DNA of 64,000 nucleotides from Limnothrix sp. BL-A-16 (GTDB lineage: Bacteria; Cyanobacteriota; Cyanobacteriia; CACIAM-69d). The notes beneath the pieces are model-generated. The model did not search any database. It was not told where the DNA came from and saw nothing but the letters and a program-made list of their open reading frames with translations. The stretch is taken from assembly GCA_041937175.2 (NCBI GenBank), contig CP166615.1:3136001-3200000 (forward strand), read 5' to 3'. The translations under genes and the position numbers were made by a program. Positions 41,317-55,941 of the stretch are shown piece by piece (position 1 is the stretch's first letter; every line of letters begins with the position of its first letter).

Positions 41317-44300
41317 ATGGACGAGCAACGACTTCAGGCTTATTTGCAATTGATTCAGCAGTTGTTGGCTTGTCCGGCGGGGGAAGAGGAAAGCGTTTTG
41401 CAAGCCCAGGTGGAGTTGGTGGATGCGGGGCTGGTGGAGGTGATGGGACAGGTAGCTGACCTAATGGTGGAAAAAGGAGACAACAACGCCGGCCGATTGC
41501 GACAGTTTTCTGAGCAGGTGGCGCAGGCGTTGGGGCTGGAGTCAGCGACGGCGAGTGGTGCGGAGGATATGGATCAGTTTGTGGGGGAGGTGATGGAGCA
41601 GATTCTCCAAACCCAAGGCAATCCAGCGCAGGTTTATGGGTTTTGGCAGGTCGATTTAAATCGATTTAACGAAGCATTTTTGGCAACGCTGCCTATCACT
41701 TTTCGCCGCTTGATCGGGCAAAATGACCCCAAACTAATTGCGGCTATCTTTGCTAGGTTTGGAAACTTGATTCAACAATTTCCAATCGGTTCGCATTGGT
41801 TGAATCTGGAATGTGCAATTACGGTCTACGAACAGGCGCTGATGATCTACACCTGCGAAGCGCTTCTCGAAGATTGGGCCATGACCCAAAACAACCTGGC
41901 AACTGCTTACAGCAATCGAATCCGAGGGGAGAAGGCGGACAACCTAGAACTAGCGATCACCGCCTACAAACGGGCGCTGGAAGTCCTCACCCGCGATGCT
42001 TGTCCTGAAAATTGGGCAGGGACTCAAAACAATCTGGCCAATGCTTACAGCAATCGAATTCGAGGGGAGCGGGCGGACAACCTAGAACTAGCAATCACCG
42101 CCTACAAACGGGCGCTGGAAGTCTACACCCGCGATACTTTTCCTGAAAATTGGGCCATGACTCAAAACAACCTGGGAGAAGCTTACCGCTCTCGAATCCG
42201 AGGGGAGAAGGCGGACAACCTAGAACTAGCGATCACCGCCTACAAACGGGCACTGGAAGTCAGAACTCGCGATGCTTTTCCCAAAGATTGGGCAGGGACT
42301 CAAAACAATCTAGCCAATGGTTACGGTGCTCGAATCCGAGGGGAACGGGCGGACAACTTAGAACTAGCGATCACCGCTTACAAACGAGCGCTGGAAGTCT
42401 ACACCCGCGATACTTTTCCTGAAAATTGGGCCATGACCCAAAACAACTTAGCAACTGCCTACAGCAATCGAATCTGCGGGGAACGGGCGGATAACCTAGA
42501 ACTAGCGATCACCGCTTACAAACGAGCGCTGGAAGTCCGTACCCGCGAGGCGTTTCCTGAAGCTTGGGCAGCGACCCAAAACAACCTGGCAAATGCTTAC
42601 AGCGATCGCATCAGAGGAGAACGGGCGCACAACCTAGAACAAGCGATCACCGCTTACGAACGGGCGCTGGAAGTCTACACCCGCAATGCTTTTCCCGAAA
42701 ATTGGGCCATGACCCAAAACAACCTGGGAGAAGCTTATCGCGATCGCATCCGAGGGGAGCGGGCAGACAACCTGGAGCGAGCAATCATCGCTTGCGAACG
42801 GGCGCTGGAAGTCTATGCCCGCGATACTTTTCCACAAAATTGGGCCATGACCCAAAACAACTTAGCAACTGCCTACAGCAATCGAATCTGCGGGGAGCGG
42901 GCGGACAACCTAGAACTAGCGATCACTGCCTACAAACGGGCGCTGGAAATCTACACCCGCAATGCTTTTCCACAAGATTGGGCAGGGACTCAAAATAACC
43001 TGGCAAATGCTTACGTCGCTCGTATCCAAGGGGAACGGGCAGATAACCTGGAGCAGTCGATCGCCGCCTACAAACGGGCGCTGGAAGTCTACACCCATGA
43101 TGCTTTTCCTGAACAATGGGCAATGACCCAAAACAACCTGGCAAATACTTACAGCCAGAGAATTCGAGGGGAACGGGCGGACAACCCGGAACGGGCGATC
43201 ACTGCTTACGAACAGGCGCTGGAAGTCCGCACCCGCGAGGCGTTTCCCGAAGATTGGGCAGCGACCCAAAACAACCTAGCAATTGCTTACCGCGATCGCA
43301 TCCGAGGGGAACGGGCGGATAACCTCGAACAAGCGATCGCTGCCTACGAACGGGCGCTGGAAGTCTTCACCCGCGAGGCCTTTCCGAATGACTGTCGCCG
43401 TACTTCTCGATCGCTCGGCGATCTTCAAAGCGAGTTGCAAAACTGGGATGCTGCGACCCAAGCCTATGGGCAAGCCCTCGCCGCTGCGGAAGATCTCTAC
43501 CAAGCCTGCACCCTGCTCGACAGCCAAGCCGGTGAGCTAAAAGCAACCGCCAACCTGCCCCGCCGCGCCGCCTATGCCTACGCCAAAGCCAGTCAACTCG
43601 CCACAGCCCTCGAAACGATCGAACGGGGCCGCGCCCGGGGCCTCAGCGAACGACTCCAACGCGATCGCGCTGACCTCGCACAACTCCAACAACAGCGCCC
43701 TGACCTGTTCGATCGCTACCGCGACATCACCAACCAACTGCAAAACCTGGAAAGCCAACAACGCGACCAGCAAGTCCGCGATCGCCAAGCCATCACCCCC
43801 GAACAACACCGCAACGAAGCCCAAAGACTCCGCCAGGAATTGACCGAGGCGATCGCCCAAATTCGCCAAGTCCCCGGCTATGAAACCTTCCTGCAAGCAC
43901 CCAGCCTCACCGAAATTCAACAAAACCTCAGCACCGAAGCACCCACCGTCTACCTGATCCCCACCCCCAACGGCAGCCTCGCCCTAATCGCCACGCCCCA
44001 GGCGATCGCCCCCCTGTGGCTCGATGATTTCCCCGAAGCCACCCTCACCGACTTGGTGCAAACCTGGCTCCAGGCTGACAGAGAGTCCAAAGTGGCTAAC
44101 TATGAGTACAGTAAAGACCCGGAATCACTAGCCAAGATGCAGACCCGAAATGAAAAGCGGGAGCAGTGGCACAACGCGATCGACCAGGGAACCCGCCAAC
44201 TGTGGGACAACCTAATGGCTCCCCTAATCGATCGGCTCAAACAACACAACCACACCCAAGCGATCCTGATTCCCACCGGCTTGCTCGGATTGTTGCCCCT

Positions 44301-45099
44301 CCATGCCGCCTGGACAGAAGACCCCAGCCGCCCCACCGGCCGCCGCTACGCCCTCGATGAGCTGACCTTCACCTACGCCCCCAACGCCCAATCCCTCGTG
44401 GCCGCCCGGGCGGTGGCGGATGCCTTGCGGAGCAATATCGCCCAACAATTCCCCGACAGCCACCTCGATTCGATCCTGGCGATCGACAATCCCCGCCAAG
44501 ACCTGCCCAGCTCCGAACGGGAAGTCACGGCCGCCGTCAAAACCTTCCCCCACCCCACCGTCCTGCGCCACGAAAAAGCCACCACCGCAACCGTTGCCGA
44601 CAACCTGGGTCAACAGGCGATCGTCCATTTCTCCTGCCACGGAACCGCCAACTTCAACGAACCCCTCAACAGCGGCCTGCTAATGAGCGATGACCTGTTG
44701 ACCCTGCGCGAGCTATTTAACCTCAAGCTCACCGAAGGCAACAAACGCGGCATCCGGCTCGCCGTCCTCTCCGCCTGCGAAACGGGACTCCCCGGCCTGG
44801 ACTTAGCCGACGAGGCGATCGGCTTGCCCGTCGGACTGTTGCAAGCAGGCGTGGCCGGGGCGATCGCCTCGCTCTGGGCCGTGAGCGACCTCAGCACCAT
44901 GATTCTGCTCACCAAGTTCTACGACCTCTGGCGCAACGATCGCCTCACCCCACCCGCAGCCCTCCGCCAAGCCCAACAATGGCTCCGCAACGCGACCCTT
45001 TCCGAAATTCGCCAGCTCACCGGCATCAGTTTCCGAGGCGCTGAACACCCATTTGCCCACCCCTACTACTGGGCAGGCTTCAGCTACACCGGCATATAA
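41317..45099 (+). CDS. TPR-CHAT (caspase-like C14 clan) protease
   Basis: N-terminal MDEQRLQAYLQLIQQLLACP domain; eleven 46-aa TPR-like repeats; CHAT with catalytic HFSCHG and LSACETG; ends HPYYWAGFSYTG. Confidence 0.95.
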   Translation: MDEQRLQAYLQLIQQLLACPAGEEESVLQAQVELVDAGLVEVMGQVADLMVEKGDNNAGRLRQFSEQVAQALGLESATASGAEDMDQFVGEVMEQILQTQGNPAQVYGFWQVDLNRFNEAFLATLPITFRRLIGQNDPKLIAAIFARFGNLIQQFPIGSHWLNLECAITVYEQALMIYTCEALLEDWAMTQNNLATAYSNRIRGEKADNLELAITAYKRALEVLTRDACPENWAGTQNNLANAYSNRIRGERADNLELAITAYKRALEVYTRDTFPENWAMTQNNLGEAYRSRIRGEKADNLELAITAYKRALEVRTRDAFPKDWAGTQNNLANGYGARIRGERADNLELAITAYKRALEVYTRDTFPENWAMTQNNLATAYSNRICGERADNLELAITAYKRALEVRTREAFPEAWAATQNNLANAYSDRIRGERAHNLEQAITAYERALEVYTRNAFPENWAMTQNNLGEAYRDRIRGERADNLERAIIACERALEVYARDTFPQNWAMTQNNLATAYSNRICGERADNLELAITAYKRALEIYTRNAFPQDWAGTQNNLANAYVARIQGERADNLEQSIAAYKRALEVYTHDAFPEQWAMTQNNLANTYSQRIRGERADNPERAITAYEQALEVRTREAFPEDWAATQNNLAIAYRDRIRGERADNLEQAIAAYERALEVFTREAFPNDCRRTSRSLGDLQSELQNWDAATQAYGQALAAAEDLYQACTLLDSQAGELKATANLPRRAAYAYAKASQLATALETIERGRARGLSERLQRDRADLAQLQQQRPDLFDRYRDITNQLQNLESQQRDQQVRDRQAITPEQHRNEAQRLRQELTEAIAQIRQVPGYETFLQAPSLTEIQQNLSTEAPTVYLIPTPNGSLALIATPQAIAPLWLDDFPEATLTDLVQTWLQADRESKVANYEYSKDPESLAKMQTRNEKREQWHNAIDQGTRQLWDNLMAPLIDRLKQHNHTQAILIPTGLLGLLPLHAAWTEDPSRPTGRRYALDELTFTYAPNAQSLVAARAVADALRSNIAQQFPDSHLDSILAIDNPRQDLPSSEREVTAAVKTFPHPTVLRHEKATTATVADNLGQQAIVHFSCHGTANFNEPLNSGLLMSDDLLTLRELFNLKLTEGNKRGIRLAVLSACETGLPGLDLADEAIGLPVGLLQAGVAGAIASLWAVSDLSTMILLTKFYDLWRNDRLTPPAALRQAQQWLRNATLSEIRQLTGISFRGAEHPFAHPYYWAGFSYTGI
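41875..43392 (+). repeat. 11 x 138-bp intragenic tandem repeat (TPR array)
   Basis: TGGGC...AC(C/T)CAAAA(C/T)AA motif recurs every 138 bp from 41875 to 43255. Confidence 0.92.
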
Positions 45100-50326: not shown

Positions 50327-50519
50327 AATTGCGCTCACTCCACACCAAGGGTTTGTGTTGCTTTCCACACCAAATCGATCTTGCATCCGCACGATCGACA
50401 TAGTTCGCAACTCGCCTGAAGGATAGCACGGGCCGATCGAGGGGGTCGATCGCCCCGGATACCATGGCGGGGTCTGGGGGAGTGAGTAAACTTAAAGCAG
50501 ATGTGAGGAGCGATCGCCC

Positions 50520-51017
50520 ATGTTTGACCAAAACGAGTTAGCCAATCTTGAGAAAAATATCAAGCGCCTTAAGCAGCAGTTAGCGGGCAAACGCGACACC
50601 CTGGTCACGATCGCTTCAGACGAAAAAGTACGGATTCGGCAGCAAATTGAAGATCTACGCTCCGAGATCAACGGCTTGGAGCGGGAATATTGGGAACTGC
50701 TGCATCAGCGATCGATCAGCTTTGAGCCGTCGGAGGATGAAGCTGAACCGATCGTGGCGGAATGGGTTGAGAAAGCCAATCAGTTAGAGACGAATCCGCC
50801 CGCCAACGTGCCTGCTGAGATTTTGCAGCAGGTGCAGGCGGTGGCCAAACGGTTGGATCAGCCGGGTCAATCGGCTGCGATCAAGGTGAAGGGGATGATT
50901 TCGGCGTTGCCACCATTTTTCTCGGTGGGCATTGAGACCGAATTGGATGTGGCGGGATTTGTAAAAGGCAATTTCCCCACTTTTTGGAACTGGGCGGCGG
51001 CACTCGCAAAAAAGTAG
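50520..51017 (+). CDS. 165-aa helical/coiled-coil protein; likely N-terminal module of a frameshifted NLR-like fusion
   Basis: ATG after GAGGAG; ends GCA AAA AAG TAG. Confidence 0.85.
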   Translation: MFDQNELANLEKNIKRLKQQLAGKRDTLVTIASDEKVRIRQQIEDLRSEINGLEREYWELLHQRSISFEPSEDEAEPIVAEWVEKANQLETNPPANVPAEILQQVQAVAKRLDQPGQSAAIKVKGMISALPPFFSVGIETELDVAGFVKGNFPTFWNWAAALAKK

Positions 51018-53119
51018 ATGGCCCGGTTCCAACGCCGGGCCAAGAACCGCCGACAAATTTGCAGGATCGGGGGGTCGATCGCGATCGCTTCTTTGGACGC
51101 GATGACGTATTGCAGGATTTGCACGATCGGTTGGGGCGATCGGATCGGGTGGCGGTGACGAGTGTGGCGGGCATGGGCGGCGTGGGCAAAAGTGAGCTGG
51201 CGGTGCAGTATGCGCGGTGGCGGCTGCGGGAGGGGGACTATCGCGGCGGGGTGGTGTGGCTGGCGGGGGAACGGGCGGGGATTGAGCTATTGGGGTTTGC
51301 GAAGGCGCAGTTTTTCCCGGATGTGGATTTGGCGCAGTTAGGCGATTTACGCGAACAGTTGACGTTTATTTGGTCGCGTTGGCCGGTGCCTGAGGTTCCG
51401 CCGGAGTCGGTGCTGTTGGTGTTTGATGATGTGACGGATTACCGATCGCAGGTGGCGGATCTGTTGCCGAGTGACAAGCGGTTTCGGGCGATCGTCACGA
51501 CGCGGGAGCAGATCCAGGGGATCGATCGGTTGGATTTGGCGGTGCTGGCTCCGGCGGCTGCGTTGGACTTGTTGCGATCAATCGTTGGGGAAGCGCGGAT
51601 CGCGGCGGAACCGGAGACGGCGAGCGAGATCTGTGAATGGCTGGGCTTTTTGCCGTTGGGTTTGGAGTTGGTGGGCTATTATCTCCAGCGCAAGCCGAAT
51701 CTGTCGCTGGCAAAGCTGCTGGAACGGTTGAATGAGAAGCGTTTGGCGGCGAGGGCGTTAATCGATGTGCCGGTGACGCTGACGGCACAGCGGGGGGTCG
51801 CGGCGGCGTTTGAGTTGAGTTGGGAGGCGATCGGCGCGCAGGAGTGGGGCGAGTCGGCGCAGGCGTTGGCGATGCGGCTGAGTCTGTTTGCGGCGGCTCC
51901 GATTCCGTGGGGCTTGATGCAGGACTGTTGGGCGGCGGCGGATGAGGAGGAGTTGGAGGATTGGCGCGATGGGTTAGTGGCGTTGCATCTGATTGAGGAT
52001 GTCACCGGGGAGCGCTATCGGTTGCATCCGCTGATTCGGGAGTTTTTTGCAGCGAAGTTGGCGGCGCGGGCGGAGGCGACAGCCTGGCGGACGGCGTTTG
52101 CGGTGACGTTGACGAAGATTGCGAGAACAATTCCGCAGACTGTGACGCTGGAACAGCAAGCCCAGGTGCGCGAGGCAATGCCCCATCTGGAAGCCGCGAC
52201 GGATTATTGCGACCTACTGAGCGATGATGATTGCGGCTGGCCGTTCACTGGTTTAGCCCGGTTTTACGAAGCCCAAGGCCTGTTCGAGGATGCCGAGCGT
52301 TGCTCTCAGCATTGCCTCGATATGCGCGAAACCCGCTTCGGAGCCGACCACCCTGATACCGCCACCAGCCTCAACAATTTGGCGGCATTGTATGAATCGC
52401 AAGGGAAATACGATCGCGCCGAACCGCTCTACCAACGCGCCTTAGACATCAGAGAACAGCAACTGGGAGCCGACCCCCCCGCTACCGCCACCAGCCTCAA
52501 CAATTTGGCGGGATTGTACCGATCACAAGGGAAATACGATCACGCCGAACCGCTCTTGCAACGCGCCTTAGCGATCAGGGAACGGCAACTGGGAGCCGAC
52601 CACCCCCATACCGCCAGCAGCCTCAACAATTTGGCGCTTTTGTATAAATCGCAAGGGAAATACGATCGCGCCGAACCGCTCTACCAACGCGCCTTAGCGA
52701 TCTATGAACGGCAACTGGGAGCCGACCACCCCAATACCGCCAGCAGCCTCAACAATTTGGCGCTTTTGTATAAATCGCAAGGGAAATACGATCGCGCCGA
52801 ACCGCTCTACCAAAGCGCCTTAGACATCAGAGAACGGCAACTGGGAGCCGACCACCCCGATACCGCCGCCAGCCTCAACAATTTGGCGGTGCTGTATTTC
52901 TATCAAAATCGCTGGGGCGAGGCGGAGCGGTTGCTGGTGCGGGCGCTGCTGATTTGGGCGCAGGTGTTGGGCGAAGCGCATCCCGACACGCAAAGCTCGA
53001 TTCAAAGCTTGTTCAGCCTAATCGGTGCAGCCCTGAACCAGGGACGCGCCGCCGAACTCTCCGACCACCCCGTCACCCAATCCATCCTGCAACAACTCAC
53101 CACCCCACCCAACCCGTAG
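50984..53119 (+). CDS. STAND NTPase (NB-ARC-like) with TPR repeats, in the -1 frame relative to 50520-51017
   Basis: FFGRDD, Walker A GMGGVGKSE, Walker B LLVFDDV, IVTTR, LGFLPLGL, LHPLIREF, then 42-aa kinesin-light-chain-type TPRs; only a TTG at 50984 as an independent start. Confidence 0.9.
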   Translation: MELGGGTRKKVDGPVPTPGQEPPTNLQDRGVDRDRFFGRDDVLQDLHDRLGRSDRVAVTSVAGMGGVGKSELAVQYARWRLREGDYRGGVVWLAGERAGIELLGFAKAQFFPDVDLAQLGDLREQLTFIWSRWPVPEVPPESVLLVFDDVTDYRSQVADLLPSDKRFRAIVTTREQIQGIDRLDLAVLAPAAALDLLRSIVGEARIAAEPETASEICEWLGFLPLGLELVGYYLQRKPNLSLAKLLERLNEKRLAARALIDVPVTLTAQRGVAAAFELSWEAIGAQEWGESAQALAMRLSLFAAAPIPWGLMQDCWAAADEEELEDWRDGLVALHLIEDVTGERYRLHPLIREFFAAKLAARAEATAWRTAFAVTLTKIARTIPQTVTLEQQAQVREAMPHLEAATDYCDLLSDDDCGWPFTGLARFYEAQGLFEDAERCSQHCLDMRETRFGADHPDTATSLNNLAALYESQGKYDRAEPLYQRALDIREQQLGADPPATATSLNNLAGLYRSQGKYDHAEPLLQRALAIRERQLGADHPHTASSLNNLALLYKSQGKYDRAEPLYQRALAIYERQLGADHPNTASSLNNLALLYKSQGKYDRAEPLYQSALDIRERQLGADHPDTAASLNNLAVLYFYQNRWGEAERLLVRALLIWAQVLGEAHPDTQSSIQSLFSLIGAALNQGRAAELSDHPVTQSILQQLTTPPNP
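51008..51042 (+). promoter_or_regulatory. Putative programmed -1 ribosomal frameshift signal
   Basis: In-frame A AAA AAG (51008-51014), then 4 nt, then stem TGGCCCGG (51019-51026) / CCGGGCCA (51035-51042) with an 8-nt loop. Confidence 0.8.
52349..52978 (+). repeat. 126-bp intragenic TPR repeats (4 near-identical plus 1 diverged)
   Basis: GGAGCCGAC...AGCCTCAACAATTTGGCG recurs every 126 bp. Confidence 0.9.
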
Positions 53120-53355: not shown

Positions 53356-53688
53356 ATGGACAAAATGAACTACCCCCAACTGGTGCAACAGGCCCTCGAC
53401 TATCACCACCAACACAGCCAAACCAGCAGCGACCTAGAAACCCACGCCATCTATGACCAACAACGCGATCGCTACCAACTGTTGCGATTTGGCTGGCAGG
53501 GGAGCGATCGCACCTTTGCCTGTGTGGCCTACGTGACGATCGAAAACGGCAAAATCTGGATTCACCGCGACTTCACCGAACCCGGCATCGCCCATCAACT
53601 GCTCGAACAAGGCATCCCCAAAACCGATATCGTCCTGGCTTTTCACGCCCCCAACCTGCGCCCCTACACCGAATTCGCGATCGGTTAA
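53356..53688 (+). CDS. xisI: Orphan XisI family protein
   Basis: IYDQQRDRYQLLRFGW, IENGKIWIHRDFTEPGIAHQLLEQGIPKTDIVLAFH.P..RPYTEFA. Confidence 0.9.
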   Translation: MDKMNYPQLVQQALDYHHQHSQTSSDLETHAIYDQQRDRYQLLRFGWQGSDRTFACVAYVTIENGKIWIHRDFTEPGIAHQLLEQGIPKTDIVLAFHAPNLRPYTEFAIG

Positions 53689-55454: not shown

Positions 55455-55941
55455 AGCAATTGTCCTAGAGCGCAATTAATAAGGCTGAGGCGATCGCTCG
55501 TGGGATCGCCCTGGCCGGATCGGCGTAAAGCTTGGCTTAAGCTTTAGCAGATTTTAAGGCGAAGTGCGACCGGGGGTAGGTCGTGAATTTGACCAGATGT
55601 TGGGCAATCGGGATCTATGGGGATCTGGGGGGATCTGTCGGGATCGGTTGGGATCGGTTGAAGTCTCGGGAGATCCCAGGCAGAAGGGCAGCAAACAACC
55701 CCCTGGCCACTGTAGACGGGGAGACGGCGTGAACTAACGGTGTGCGCCGGGCGTTGTTAATCAATGGGCTGGCGATCACAGGCGATCGGGTGTTGGCTTT
55801 CGATCGCTGGGGAGGGGTTCGGCTGCCCGTTCGCAGGGTGGCTGGGCGGTTGCTCCCAATCAGCGTTGGCCGCGCCAGAATGGAGATGATTCCAGTGGTG
55901 CTCCATGGGCCACTCTGCGCCGAGCACAAGGAGCAAAACCC

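Follow-up and report, generated by a model that had tools for sequence, protein, structure and literature searches.

Organization of the locus

The window analysed here is a stretch of 64,000 nucleotides (nt) from Limnothrix sp. BL-A-16 (GCA_041937175.2, CP166615.1:3,136,001-3,200,000, forward strand), and coordinates refer to this window except where another accession or contig is named. It contains a short open reading frame (ORF), ORF1, the end of which overlaps a long ORF (ORF2) for a bacterial NLR-like protein with NB-ARC and TPR domains. The two lie in different reading frames and meet at a slippery heptamer, A_AAA_AAG, that directly precedes the ORF1 stop codon (Table 1). To judge from the sequence and its comparison with relatives, this arrangement most likely specifies a programmed -1 ribosomal frameshift, by which one gene would give both a free N-terminal module and a fusion of that module to the NB-ARC-TPR protein.

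The final codons of ORF1 are GCA AAA AAG TAG. A first-pass annotation of this DNA had described this ending together with a good ribosome-binding site, and both are present as described; GGAG-type motifs are also found 5' of the aligned ATG in homologues of ORF1. ORF2 as listed comprises 711 amino acids (aa) from a TTG start (50984-53119) and lies in the -1 frame with respect to ORF1 (50520 mod 3 = 0; 50984 mod 3 = 2). The coordinates and a scan for start codons agree with the earlier statement that the NB-ARC-TPR frame is the -1 frame and offers TTG as its sole type of start near the site. A slip at the heptamer would yield a long product of 866 aa, that is 165 + 701, or 165 + (53116-51014+1)/3, and recalculation returns the lengths of 165 and 866 aa that had been proposed. 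The NB-ARC match of ORF2 in Pfam scores 44 bits against a cut-off of 23.5, and with this match, its P-loop, and its C-terminal repeat array the protein counts as bacterial NLR-like. The AAA_16 match covers residues 35-192 of the TTG-started ORF2, and approximately six TPR_12/TPR_10 units follow, with matched parts covering residues 423-655.

The arrangement is unique within its genome and goes beyond what chance would give. The 4.56-Mb sequence has 820 AAAAAAG sites on its two strands, and a single one of them has all three features of the locus: an upstream zero-frame ORF of 100 codons or more, a zero-frame stop no further than 10 codons away, and a -1 frame that stays open over 200 codons or more.

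Table 1. Features of the ORF1-ORF2 locus (window coordinates).
Feature	Position	Strand	Remarks
Shine-Dalgarno (SD)-like GAGGAG	50505-50510	+	9 nt 5' of the ORF1 ATG
ORF1, zero-frame (short) product, 165 aa	50520-51017	+	ATG at 50520, TAG at 51015-51017
G-rich stretch GGGCGGCGG, possible internal SD-like stimulator (weak)	50992-51000	+	8-16 nt 5' of the heptamer
Slippery heptamer A_AAA_AAG, in ORF1 register	51008-51014	+	Fits the pattern X_XXY_YYZ
ORF1 stop codon TAG	51015-51017	+	Abuts the heptamer; read in the sequence
-1 frame continuation, 701 codons plus stop	51014-53119	+	Open since 50936; stop at 53117-53119
Stem-loop, 9 pairs, 6-nt loop	51019-51042	+	Minimum free energy (MFE) fold; presumed frameshift stimulator
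STAND NTPase module (AAA_16/NB-ARC)	51086-51748	+	P-loop GMGGVGKS; Pfam NB-ARC E 2.1e-11
TPR sensor array, TPR_12/TPR_10 repeats	52250-52950	+	TPR_12 E 4.1e-84, 277 bits

Recurrence of the arrangement among relatives

Homologues of ORF1 were sought in 401 genomes of the phylum and were found in 37 of them, representing 20 of 156 genera, all from the same class; a profile built from 44 family members returned the same 37 genomes. Regions of 7.5 kb around 40 matches in 36 other genomes, together with the window, gave 41 loci for comparison, to which three further loci (L071, L072, and L074) were added for a total of 44. Whether homologues carry a terminal A_AAA_AAG and stop with a hairpin, ahead of a -1 frame STAND or other domain, had been proposed as a check, and this layout recurs widely. 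An in-frame slippery run lies close to the ORF1 stop in 30 of the 41 loci. In 27 of the 41 the run is A_AAA_AAG, A_AAA_AAC, or a stretch of nine or ten As (A9-A10) that ends 0-12 nt, and mostly 0-3 nt, before the stop; the remaining slippery loci comprise one G_GGA_AAA and two A_AAA_AAG heptamers at 27 or 33 nt before the stop. The slippery run is followed by a -1 ORF of 219 to more than 845 codons at 24 of the 30 loci, while none of the 11 loci without such a run has a -1 ORF of at least 200 codons. These -1 ORFs begin to be open merely 7-85 nt 5' of the ORF1 stop.

The three additional loci have A_AAA_AAG ending 0-3 nt before the stop and a long -1 ORF, of 1075 codons in Vacuolonema iberomarrocanum LEGE 07170 (L071), 865 codons in a metagenome-assembled genome (L072), and 647 codons from stop to stop on plasmid pCRI9333.05 of Crinalium epipsammum PCC 9333 (L074), which was the single match in a search of a plasmid collection. 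The slip site with a long -1 ORF is thus present at 27 of 44 loci in total. The 24 positive loci of the genome survey belong to 10 genus codes and 8 family codes and form 11 clusters at 60% or more ORF1 identity.

Six slippery loci lack a long -1 ORF (L034, L040, L047, L049, L052, and L068). The -1 ORF of L040 is cut by the end of its contig, and the -1 frame closes after 4-31 codons in L034, L047, L049, and L052. In L049 (G310:C32) an A_AAA_AAC heptamer is followed by a -1 frame that closes at 4 codons and then by a short tandem repeat of GGGCATA units; in L047 the heptamer and half of the hairpin are kept, after which the sequence is unrelated. Both copies appear to have decayed or been interrupted. 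Five loci have a +1 ORF of 100 codons or more (L057, L062, L068, L069, and L070). In L068 (G252:C212) an A10 run 9-12 nt before the stop is followed by a +1 ORF with an AAA_35 domain, and such a run would suit transcriptional slippage in either direction. A +1 AAA_35 ORF also follows the module in L070 (G388:C81), where there is no run near the stop.

Nucleotide-level conservation of the slip site

Conservation of two terminal lysine codons might reflect the protein alone, and the pattern of nucleotides at the site is informative in this respect. The codon before AAA AAG is GCA at 10 loci, AAA at 4, CTA at 3, GAA and CAA at 2 each, and GTA and CCA at 1 each; it therefore ends in A at 23 of the 24 positive loci although the amino acid varies, the 24th being the G_GGA_AAA variant. 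The rest of these ORFs contains 69 Lys-Lys dipeptides, of which only 3 are encoded as A_AAA_AAG. When the DNA of eight diverse sites was aligned (ORF1 identity roughly 25-50%), the sole invariant columns were AAAAAAGTA, which comprises the heptamer and TA of the stop codon, and the flanks had none. The signal is conserved beyond amino-acid constraint in these diverged homologues.

The second component of the signal is a stem-loop immediately downstream. In the window the stem consists of 8 Watson-Crick pairs and one U-G pair and begins after a spacer of 4 nt; the 8-bp stem with an 8-nt loop noted in the first-pass annotation is the identical helix with the wobble pair left out. A folding energy of -23.7 kcal/mol (z = -1.98) was obtained for the 71-nt context and was equalled by 7 of 200 shuffled sequences, and the 50 nt 3' of the heptamer fold at -18.6 kcal/mol. 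Among control segments from the same ORF, 0.5% are as stable as the site. A search for known RNA families across 50400-51400 found none, the sole row being a sub-threshold snoRNA match (E 0.2). Among the relatives, stem-loops of unrelated sequence start 0-9 nt, and mostly 3-7 nt, 3' of the heptamer. With one representative for each of the 11 clusters, the 42 nt after the site had a mean folding energy of -12.4 kcal/mol, as against -6.2 kcal/mol for segments within the same -1 ORFs, and none of 50,000 permutations was as stable. This excess also holds among the 9 representatives with A6 or A7 runs. Two representatives with A9 runs are without such a hairpin (-2.5 vs. -6.5 kcal/mol, and -5.2 vs. 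-4.1 kcal/mol).

A stimulatory element upstream of the slip site is less evident. In the window, the duplex of GGGCGGCGG with the anti-SD motif has a predicted energy of -6.3 kcal/mol, which is reached by 13% of control segments.

Architectures read in the -1 frame

The proteins encoded by the -1 ORFs fall into at least eight architectures, including NB-ARC-TPR, NACHT, nSTAND1/4/5, AAA_35, VMAP-C, and TPR-only forms. The NB-ARC and TPR combination of the window is shared by L031, L033, L037, L039, L071, and L072. NACHT domains occur in L032, L050, and L074, nSTAND4 in L035 and L036, AAA_16/nSTAND5 in L048, nSTAND1 together with an FGE-sulfatase domain in L061, AAA_35 in L059, and VMAP-C in L065, while L054, L055, and L060 encode TPRs only and L058 gives weak Ig/PPC-like matches only. 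In five more loci of genus g4 the N-termini of the -1 translations are closely similar to those of L033 and L037, an assignment made by comparison of translations rather than by a Pfam scan. Judged by these domain assignments, the family keeps ORF1 and its slip site constant and varies in the sensor or core. Since the -1 parts are diverse conflict-system cores, the module and the slip site appear to travel together.

Entry into the -1 frame

For ORF2 to be reached, ribosomes must either enter it from ORF1 or initiate within it. If ORF1 and ORF2 were two ordinary adjacent genes, ORF2 would begin at TTG 50984, at a later TTG, or by termination and reinitiation, and the A-run would simply encode a conserved C-terminal Lys-Lys. 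The -1 frame of the window does hold suitable codons, with TTGs at -24, +51, +102, +111, and +123 nt relative to the heptamer, and it holds no ATG or GTG between its opening and +123 nt. The family can evidently also operate through separate genes, as the loci L062, L063, and L064 described below indicate. In five loci, however, the -1 frame contains no ATG, GTG, or TTG between its opening and +120 nt, and in several others it opens only 0-9 nt 5' of the heptamer. In the NB-ARC group of genus g4 the first ATG lies at +117, within a conserved stretch just 5' of the P-loop.

The NACHT-type members bear on the same question. The Crinalium homologue (NC_019736.1:3104-5565) is listed in RefSeq as two coding sequences, as the first-pass annotation had forecast for such genes, and this listing is itself what two adjacent genes would look like. 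The module is given there as a 137-aa hypothetical protein, and the NACHT ORF begins at an internal ATG 170 nt past the slip site. From the slip site on, the -1 translations from the Crinalium plasmid, L032, and L050 nonetheless align at 65-78% identity, so that the Met with which RefSeq starts the 'NACHT domain-containing protein' falls approximately 60 residues inside a conserved stretch; in L032 this residue is Ile. Both RefSeq coding sequences are probably mis-started, and because conservation of the -1 peptide already begins ahead of the annotated Met, a position taken by Ile in L032, translation of ORF2 most likely enters from ORF1. Two further observations are at odds with independent genes, namely the A that ends the preceding codon whatever the amino acid, with Lys-Lys rarely encoded in this way elsewhere, and the siting of the hairpins just past the slip site. 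Independent initiation is accordingly an improbable account of the locus.

Slippage of RNA polymerase on the A-run, with an A gained or lost in some transcripts, could also join the two frames. The relatives L035, L036, L048, L058, and L068 carry A9-A10 runs, and the two A9 representatives mentioned above have no hairpin; in such relatives polymerase slippage is the likelier mechanism. In the cases treated in PMC1088944, productive transcriptional slippage involves runs of about nine As, with eight in Nostoc insertion sequence (IS) elements, whereas the window and most relatives have exactly six As followed by G, below the 8-9 nt of that source. Polymerase slippage also needs no hairpin, yet the hairpins are placed as they are in ribosomal sites, and the heptamer is held in register with the ORF1 frame. 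A ribosome slipping at A6G with a hairpin is the established agent at dnaX and IS3-type sites, which is the reason for assigning the slip in the window to the ribosome; polymerase slippage is improbable there.

A broken gene or an assembly error, in which an in-frame module-NB-ARC-TPR gene has lost one A, would produce a similar picture, and homopolymers are error-prone and in-frame fusions of the module do exist. The same -1 layout is nevertheless present at 27 loci in independent assemblies, several of them single-contig and one a finished plasmid. Two metagenome contigs from run X1 (50876-51121 and 50876-51063) bridge the site without gaps, differing from the window by 12 and 21 substitutions; no metagenome contig covers the entire stretch, and among the indel rows listed for metagenome contigs none falls within 50678-51418. 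The zero-frame stop lies 0-1 codon past the heptamer nearly everywhere, ORF2 is intact over 701 codons, and the junctions of the in-frame fusions differ and have no A7 run. Recurrence of the layout, including single-contig genomes, together with bridging contigs free of indels excludes an assembly error, and a broken gene or error of either kind is very improbable indeed.

Equally remote is the idea that the hairpin and the complementary T-run form a minus-strand intrinsic terminator unrelated to decoding: a consensus scan does list 51042-51019 followed by TCTACTTTTT on that strand, but it gave 6 such sites where 3.9 were expected, no minus-strand gene ends there (the next one rightward starts at 55475), the site lies within plus-strand coding sequence, and relatives keep the heptamer in the ORF1 frame. 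As a separate observation, this terminator-like site on the minus strand (51019-51052) might damp antisense transcription.

The ORF1 module

The AlphaFold2 model of ORF1, built from a 44-sequence alignment, is all-helical, with seven helices and high confidence (predicted local distance difference test score, pLDDT, 91.2; predicted template modelling score 0.83). It comprises a long alpha-hairpin (residues 2-67) and a C-terminal subdomain of five helices. Two structural candidates were set aside. For residues 1-67 the matches were to helical hairpins of a generic kind (Z about 10) and lie below the noise level for helical models, and the similarity of the ZAR1 resistosome to the C-terminal half (Z 5.0, root-mean-square deviation 3.4 over 72 residues) lies within the noise, the best match having Z 6.7. 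No enzymatic family in Pfam was matched by ORF1, and a search of the ESM Atlas with the module returned only unnamed cyanobacterial clusters.

The module is found in a variety of contexts. A profile search of 1.84 billion representative sequences gave 418 proteins at E<=1e-3, of which 107 were at <=1e-30. The best 150 of these 418 were sorted by architecture. The module stands alone (about 156-207 aa) in 89 of them, at the extreme C-terminus of a longer protein in 31, and at the N-terminus in frame with 60 or more further residues in 11; 9 have short tails and 10 are fragments. Lys-Lys occurs within the last four residues of 55 of the 120 representatives that end where the module ends. In-frame partners C-terminal to the module include nSTAND1, TPR, TIR, a periplasmic-binding domain, and GUN4, and partners N-terminal to it include SNF2 helicase, LRR-Roc-COR (P0154), and SEFIR/TIR or TIR (P0078, P0160). 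The module is also found C-terminal to TRADD-N (L044, L047, P0076) and to REC-EAD8 (P0198). In L044 a single ORF comprising TRADD-N and the module ends in A_AAA_AAG and is followed by a -1 ORF of 778 codons, the N-terminus of which is closely similar to the NB-ARC-TPR ORFs of L033 and L037 by comparison of translations rather than by a Pfam scan.

A related arrangement without recoding is seen in L063, where a free module gene lacking a slip site is followed 15 nt downstream by a separate NB-ARC-TPR gene (L063:1003-1020). The first 67 residues encoded by this second gene resemble the N-terminal hairpin of the module (E 5e-9), and the rest is NB-ARC-TPR. A Microcystis protein likewise has the hairpin part alone fused to NB-ARC-TPR.

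These contexts suggest that ORF1 behaves like an adaptor of the effector-associated domain (EAD) kind. The Pfam EAD9 family (PF19962) matches ORF1 residues 4-56 at 20.3 bits, below the cut-off of 25; EAD9 is matched at E<=0.01 by 4 of 44 family members, and the close homologue P0003 has a precomputed PF19962 match. As the match in ORF1 is below threshold, the module is probably an undescribed or divergent EAD. The suggestion of the first-pass annotation that the free domain serves as an adaptor gains strength from the fusions of the module to TIR, TRADD-N, Roc-COR, and STAND domains, and from the hairpin shared between the separate genes of L063. A profile search of the Limnothrix genome found a single copy of the module, so the only possible homotypic partner of the free module is the fused copy.

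A model for expression and function

The earlier proposal of a programmed -1 frameshift is supported by comparison, in that the signal and an open -1 frame recur across relatives. In the sequence of events envisaged, initiation at ATG 50520 would produce the 165-aa helical module, and most ribosomes would pass A_AAA_AAG, stop at the adjoining TAG, and release the module in free form. Some ribosomes, held by the hairpin 4 nt downstream, would slip by -1 and read 701 more codons; the hairpin, and perhaps also the adjacent stop codon, would stimulate the slip. The resulting long form of 866 aa would consist of the module, the STAND NTPase, and the TPR array. Recoding of this kind would fix the ratio of sensor to adaptor from a single promoter.

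Functionally, the activated long form may oligomerise, and its clustered modules may recruit free copies of the short form. Provided that recoding is real, we regard this model of homotypic recruitment as having roughly even chances. Since the short products of some relatives carry TRADD-N or TIR, a recruited adaptor or effector is favoured over a decoy, although it is possible that the bare module of the window acts as a decoy inhibitor.

Several findings count against a programmed frameshift or narrow its reach, and they are collected here. Genus g4 alone contributes about half of the positive loci, and the raw counts therefore overstate how independent the loci are. The arrangement is missing from 17 of 44 loci, some of which are truncated or at contig ends. 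In L062 (L062:1086-1092) the NB-ARC-TPR gene lies in the +1 frame and is joined to the module gene by an ATGA overlap of start and stop, and in L063 and L064 the downstream genes are separate; members of the family can consequently do without the fusion. Family-wide, enrichment of the upstream SD-like element is weak, with a mean duplex energy of -4.0 as against -2.6 kcal/mol in controls (p=0.037, 11 representatives). A spacer of 4 nt is at the short end for bacterial frameshift sites. Foldseek searches of the PDB with the whole ORF1 model and with its C-terminal half (pLDDT 83) found no match at E<=1e-3. The genome, which has 46 tRNAs in total, encodes both tRNA-Lys(UUU) and tRNA-Lys(CUU) (C1:814075-814146 and C1:3314320-3314391). 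Tsuchihashi and Brown, in 1992, reportedly put down the high shiftiness of AAG in E. coli to its missing CUU isoacceptor, and because this host has tRNA-Lys(CUU) the efficiency of frameshifting may be modest here.

A broader and more speculative view, which we consider doubtful though worth stating, is that the module and its A_AAA_AAG-stop-hairpin signal form a portable recoding cassette, which shuffling has placed on many different immune or cell-death sensors of cyanobacteria. Every gene of this kind would then encode both a sensor-fused adaptor and a free one (or an adaptor-effector), with frameshift efficiency setting their ratio, and once the sensor is activated the free copies would polymerise on it, much as CARD/PYD adaptors do in inflammasomes. 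As the shift codon is AAG and both tRNA-Lys isoacceptors are present, the ratio could respond to tRNA-Lys status or translational stress in infection.

Genomic neighbourhood and significance

The locus is flanked by GlmM upstream on the opposite strand and by XisI and a GH57 enzyme downstream. These housekeeping genes leave no basis for a defence-island argument. The XisI-family ORF (53356-53688, +) lies directly 3' of the NB-ARC-TPR stop; in heterocystous cyanobacteria, XisI and XisH genes go with excision elements. A TPR-CHAT (caspase-like) protein of 1260 aa, likewise of conflict-system type, is encoded at 41317-45099 (+), 5.4 kb upstream of ORF1, and between the two lie a DUF29 ORF, two ORFs without a family, a DUF3108-like ORF, and GlmM.

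Immunity research now gives a central place to the NLR-like STAND proteins of bacteria. If the proposed reading is correct, hundreds of cyanobacterial 'hypothetical 165-aa proteins' and N-terminally truncated STANDs would be mis-annotated halves of one gene, and EAD coupling would gain a mechanism that fixes the stoichiometry of sensor and adaptor from one message. With its 165-aa module and its signal of approximately 35 nt, the locus would also be a compact natural system in which to study how the adaptor-to-sensor ratio controls NLR signalling.

Comparison with known systems

Most known bacterial cases of programmed -1 frameshifting come from dnaX, insertion sequences, and phage tail genes, with a few elsewhere, and to our knowledge no bacterial NLR-like STAND protein is expressed by recoding. 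A search of the full-text literature found no account of recoding in bacterial STAND/NLR-like or EAD-bearing genes. The available portions of a recoding review (PMC5009743) and of PMC4066793 contain no such case, and those of a screen for RNA structures in cyanobacteria (PMC12873609) report only prfB. The corresponding portions of the GeneTack paper (PMC3711429; Antonov, 2013) contain none either, and six cyanobacterial genus names gave no match in two of its supplements; GeneTack clusters may still include the family.

The closest mechanistic parallel is dnaX. The E. coli gene likewise has A_AAA_AAG, a downstream stem-loop, and two products with a common N-terminus, and the members of the ORF1 family with A9 runs recall dnaX of Thermus as described in PMC3711429 and PMC1088944. 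The E. coli dnaX shift leads to the shorter product, whereas here the longer product would result, which is also the case for 17 dnaX genes that PMC3711429 assigns to a second type. The present system further differs from dnaX in its weak upstream SD-like element, in a host that has tRNA-Lys(CUU), and in encoding an NLR-like sensor rather than a replication factor. The OrfA-OrfAB pairs of IS3 and IS1 elements are similar in that a short ORF ends just past an A-rich heptamer and the -1 fusion adds the catalytic or output part. Their members also alternate between A6G with a structure and long A-runs, according to PMC5009743 and PMC1088944. Unlike these elements, the present loci have no transposase and no terminal repeats, and they combine at least eight unrelated downstream architectures with a constant module and slip site.

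In terms of protein function the nearest counterparts are the EADs (Kaur, Burroughs, Iyer, and Aravind, 2020), which are small, non-enzymatic, all-helical domains found free, on TIR or TRADD-N, or on an NTPase, as the ORF1 module is. In EAD coupling, as set out in PMC7159879, the copy on the core has a counterpart that is either free or attached to an effector, often encoded by the neighbouring gene, and the two are proposed to bridge homotypically. The systems presented there share the partners VMAP-C, nSTAND, and FGE-sulfatase with the module. In that text the words 'frameshift', 'slippage', and 'recoding' have zero occurrences, and the present loci differ from EAD systems in that free and core-fused copies would be read from the same DNA by recoding.

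A more distant likeness, by inference only, is to the CARD/PYD death-fold adaptors of animal NLRs and the CC domains of plant CC-NLRs, in which an N-terminal helical domain sits on an NB-ARC or NACHT sensor and a free copy could be recruited on oligomerisation; the module differs from these in having no fold match. We know of no eukaryotic NLR that makes its adaptor by frameshifting. The mechanism proposed for this locus is thus of a known kind, and it is its coupling to an adaptor module shuffled among immune-type sensors that appears to be new.

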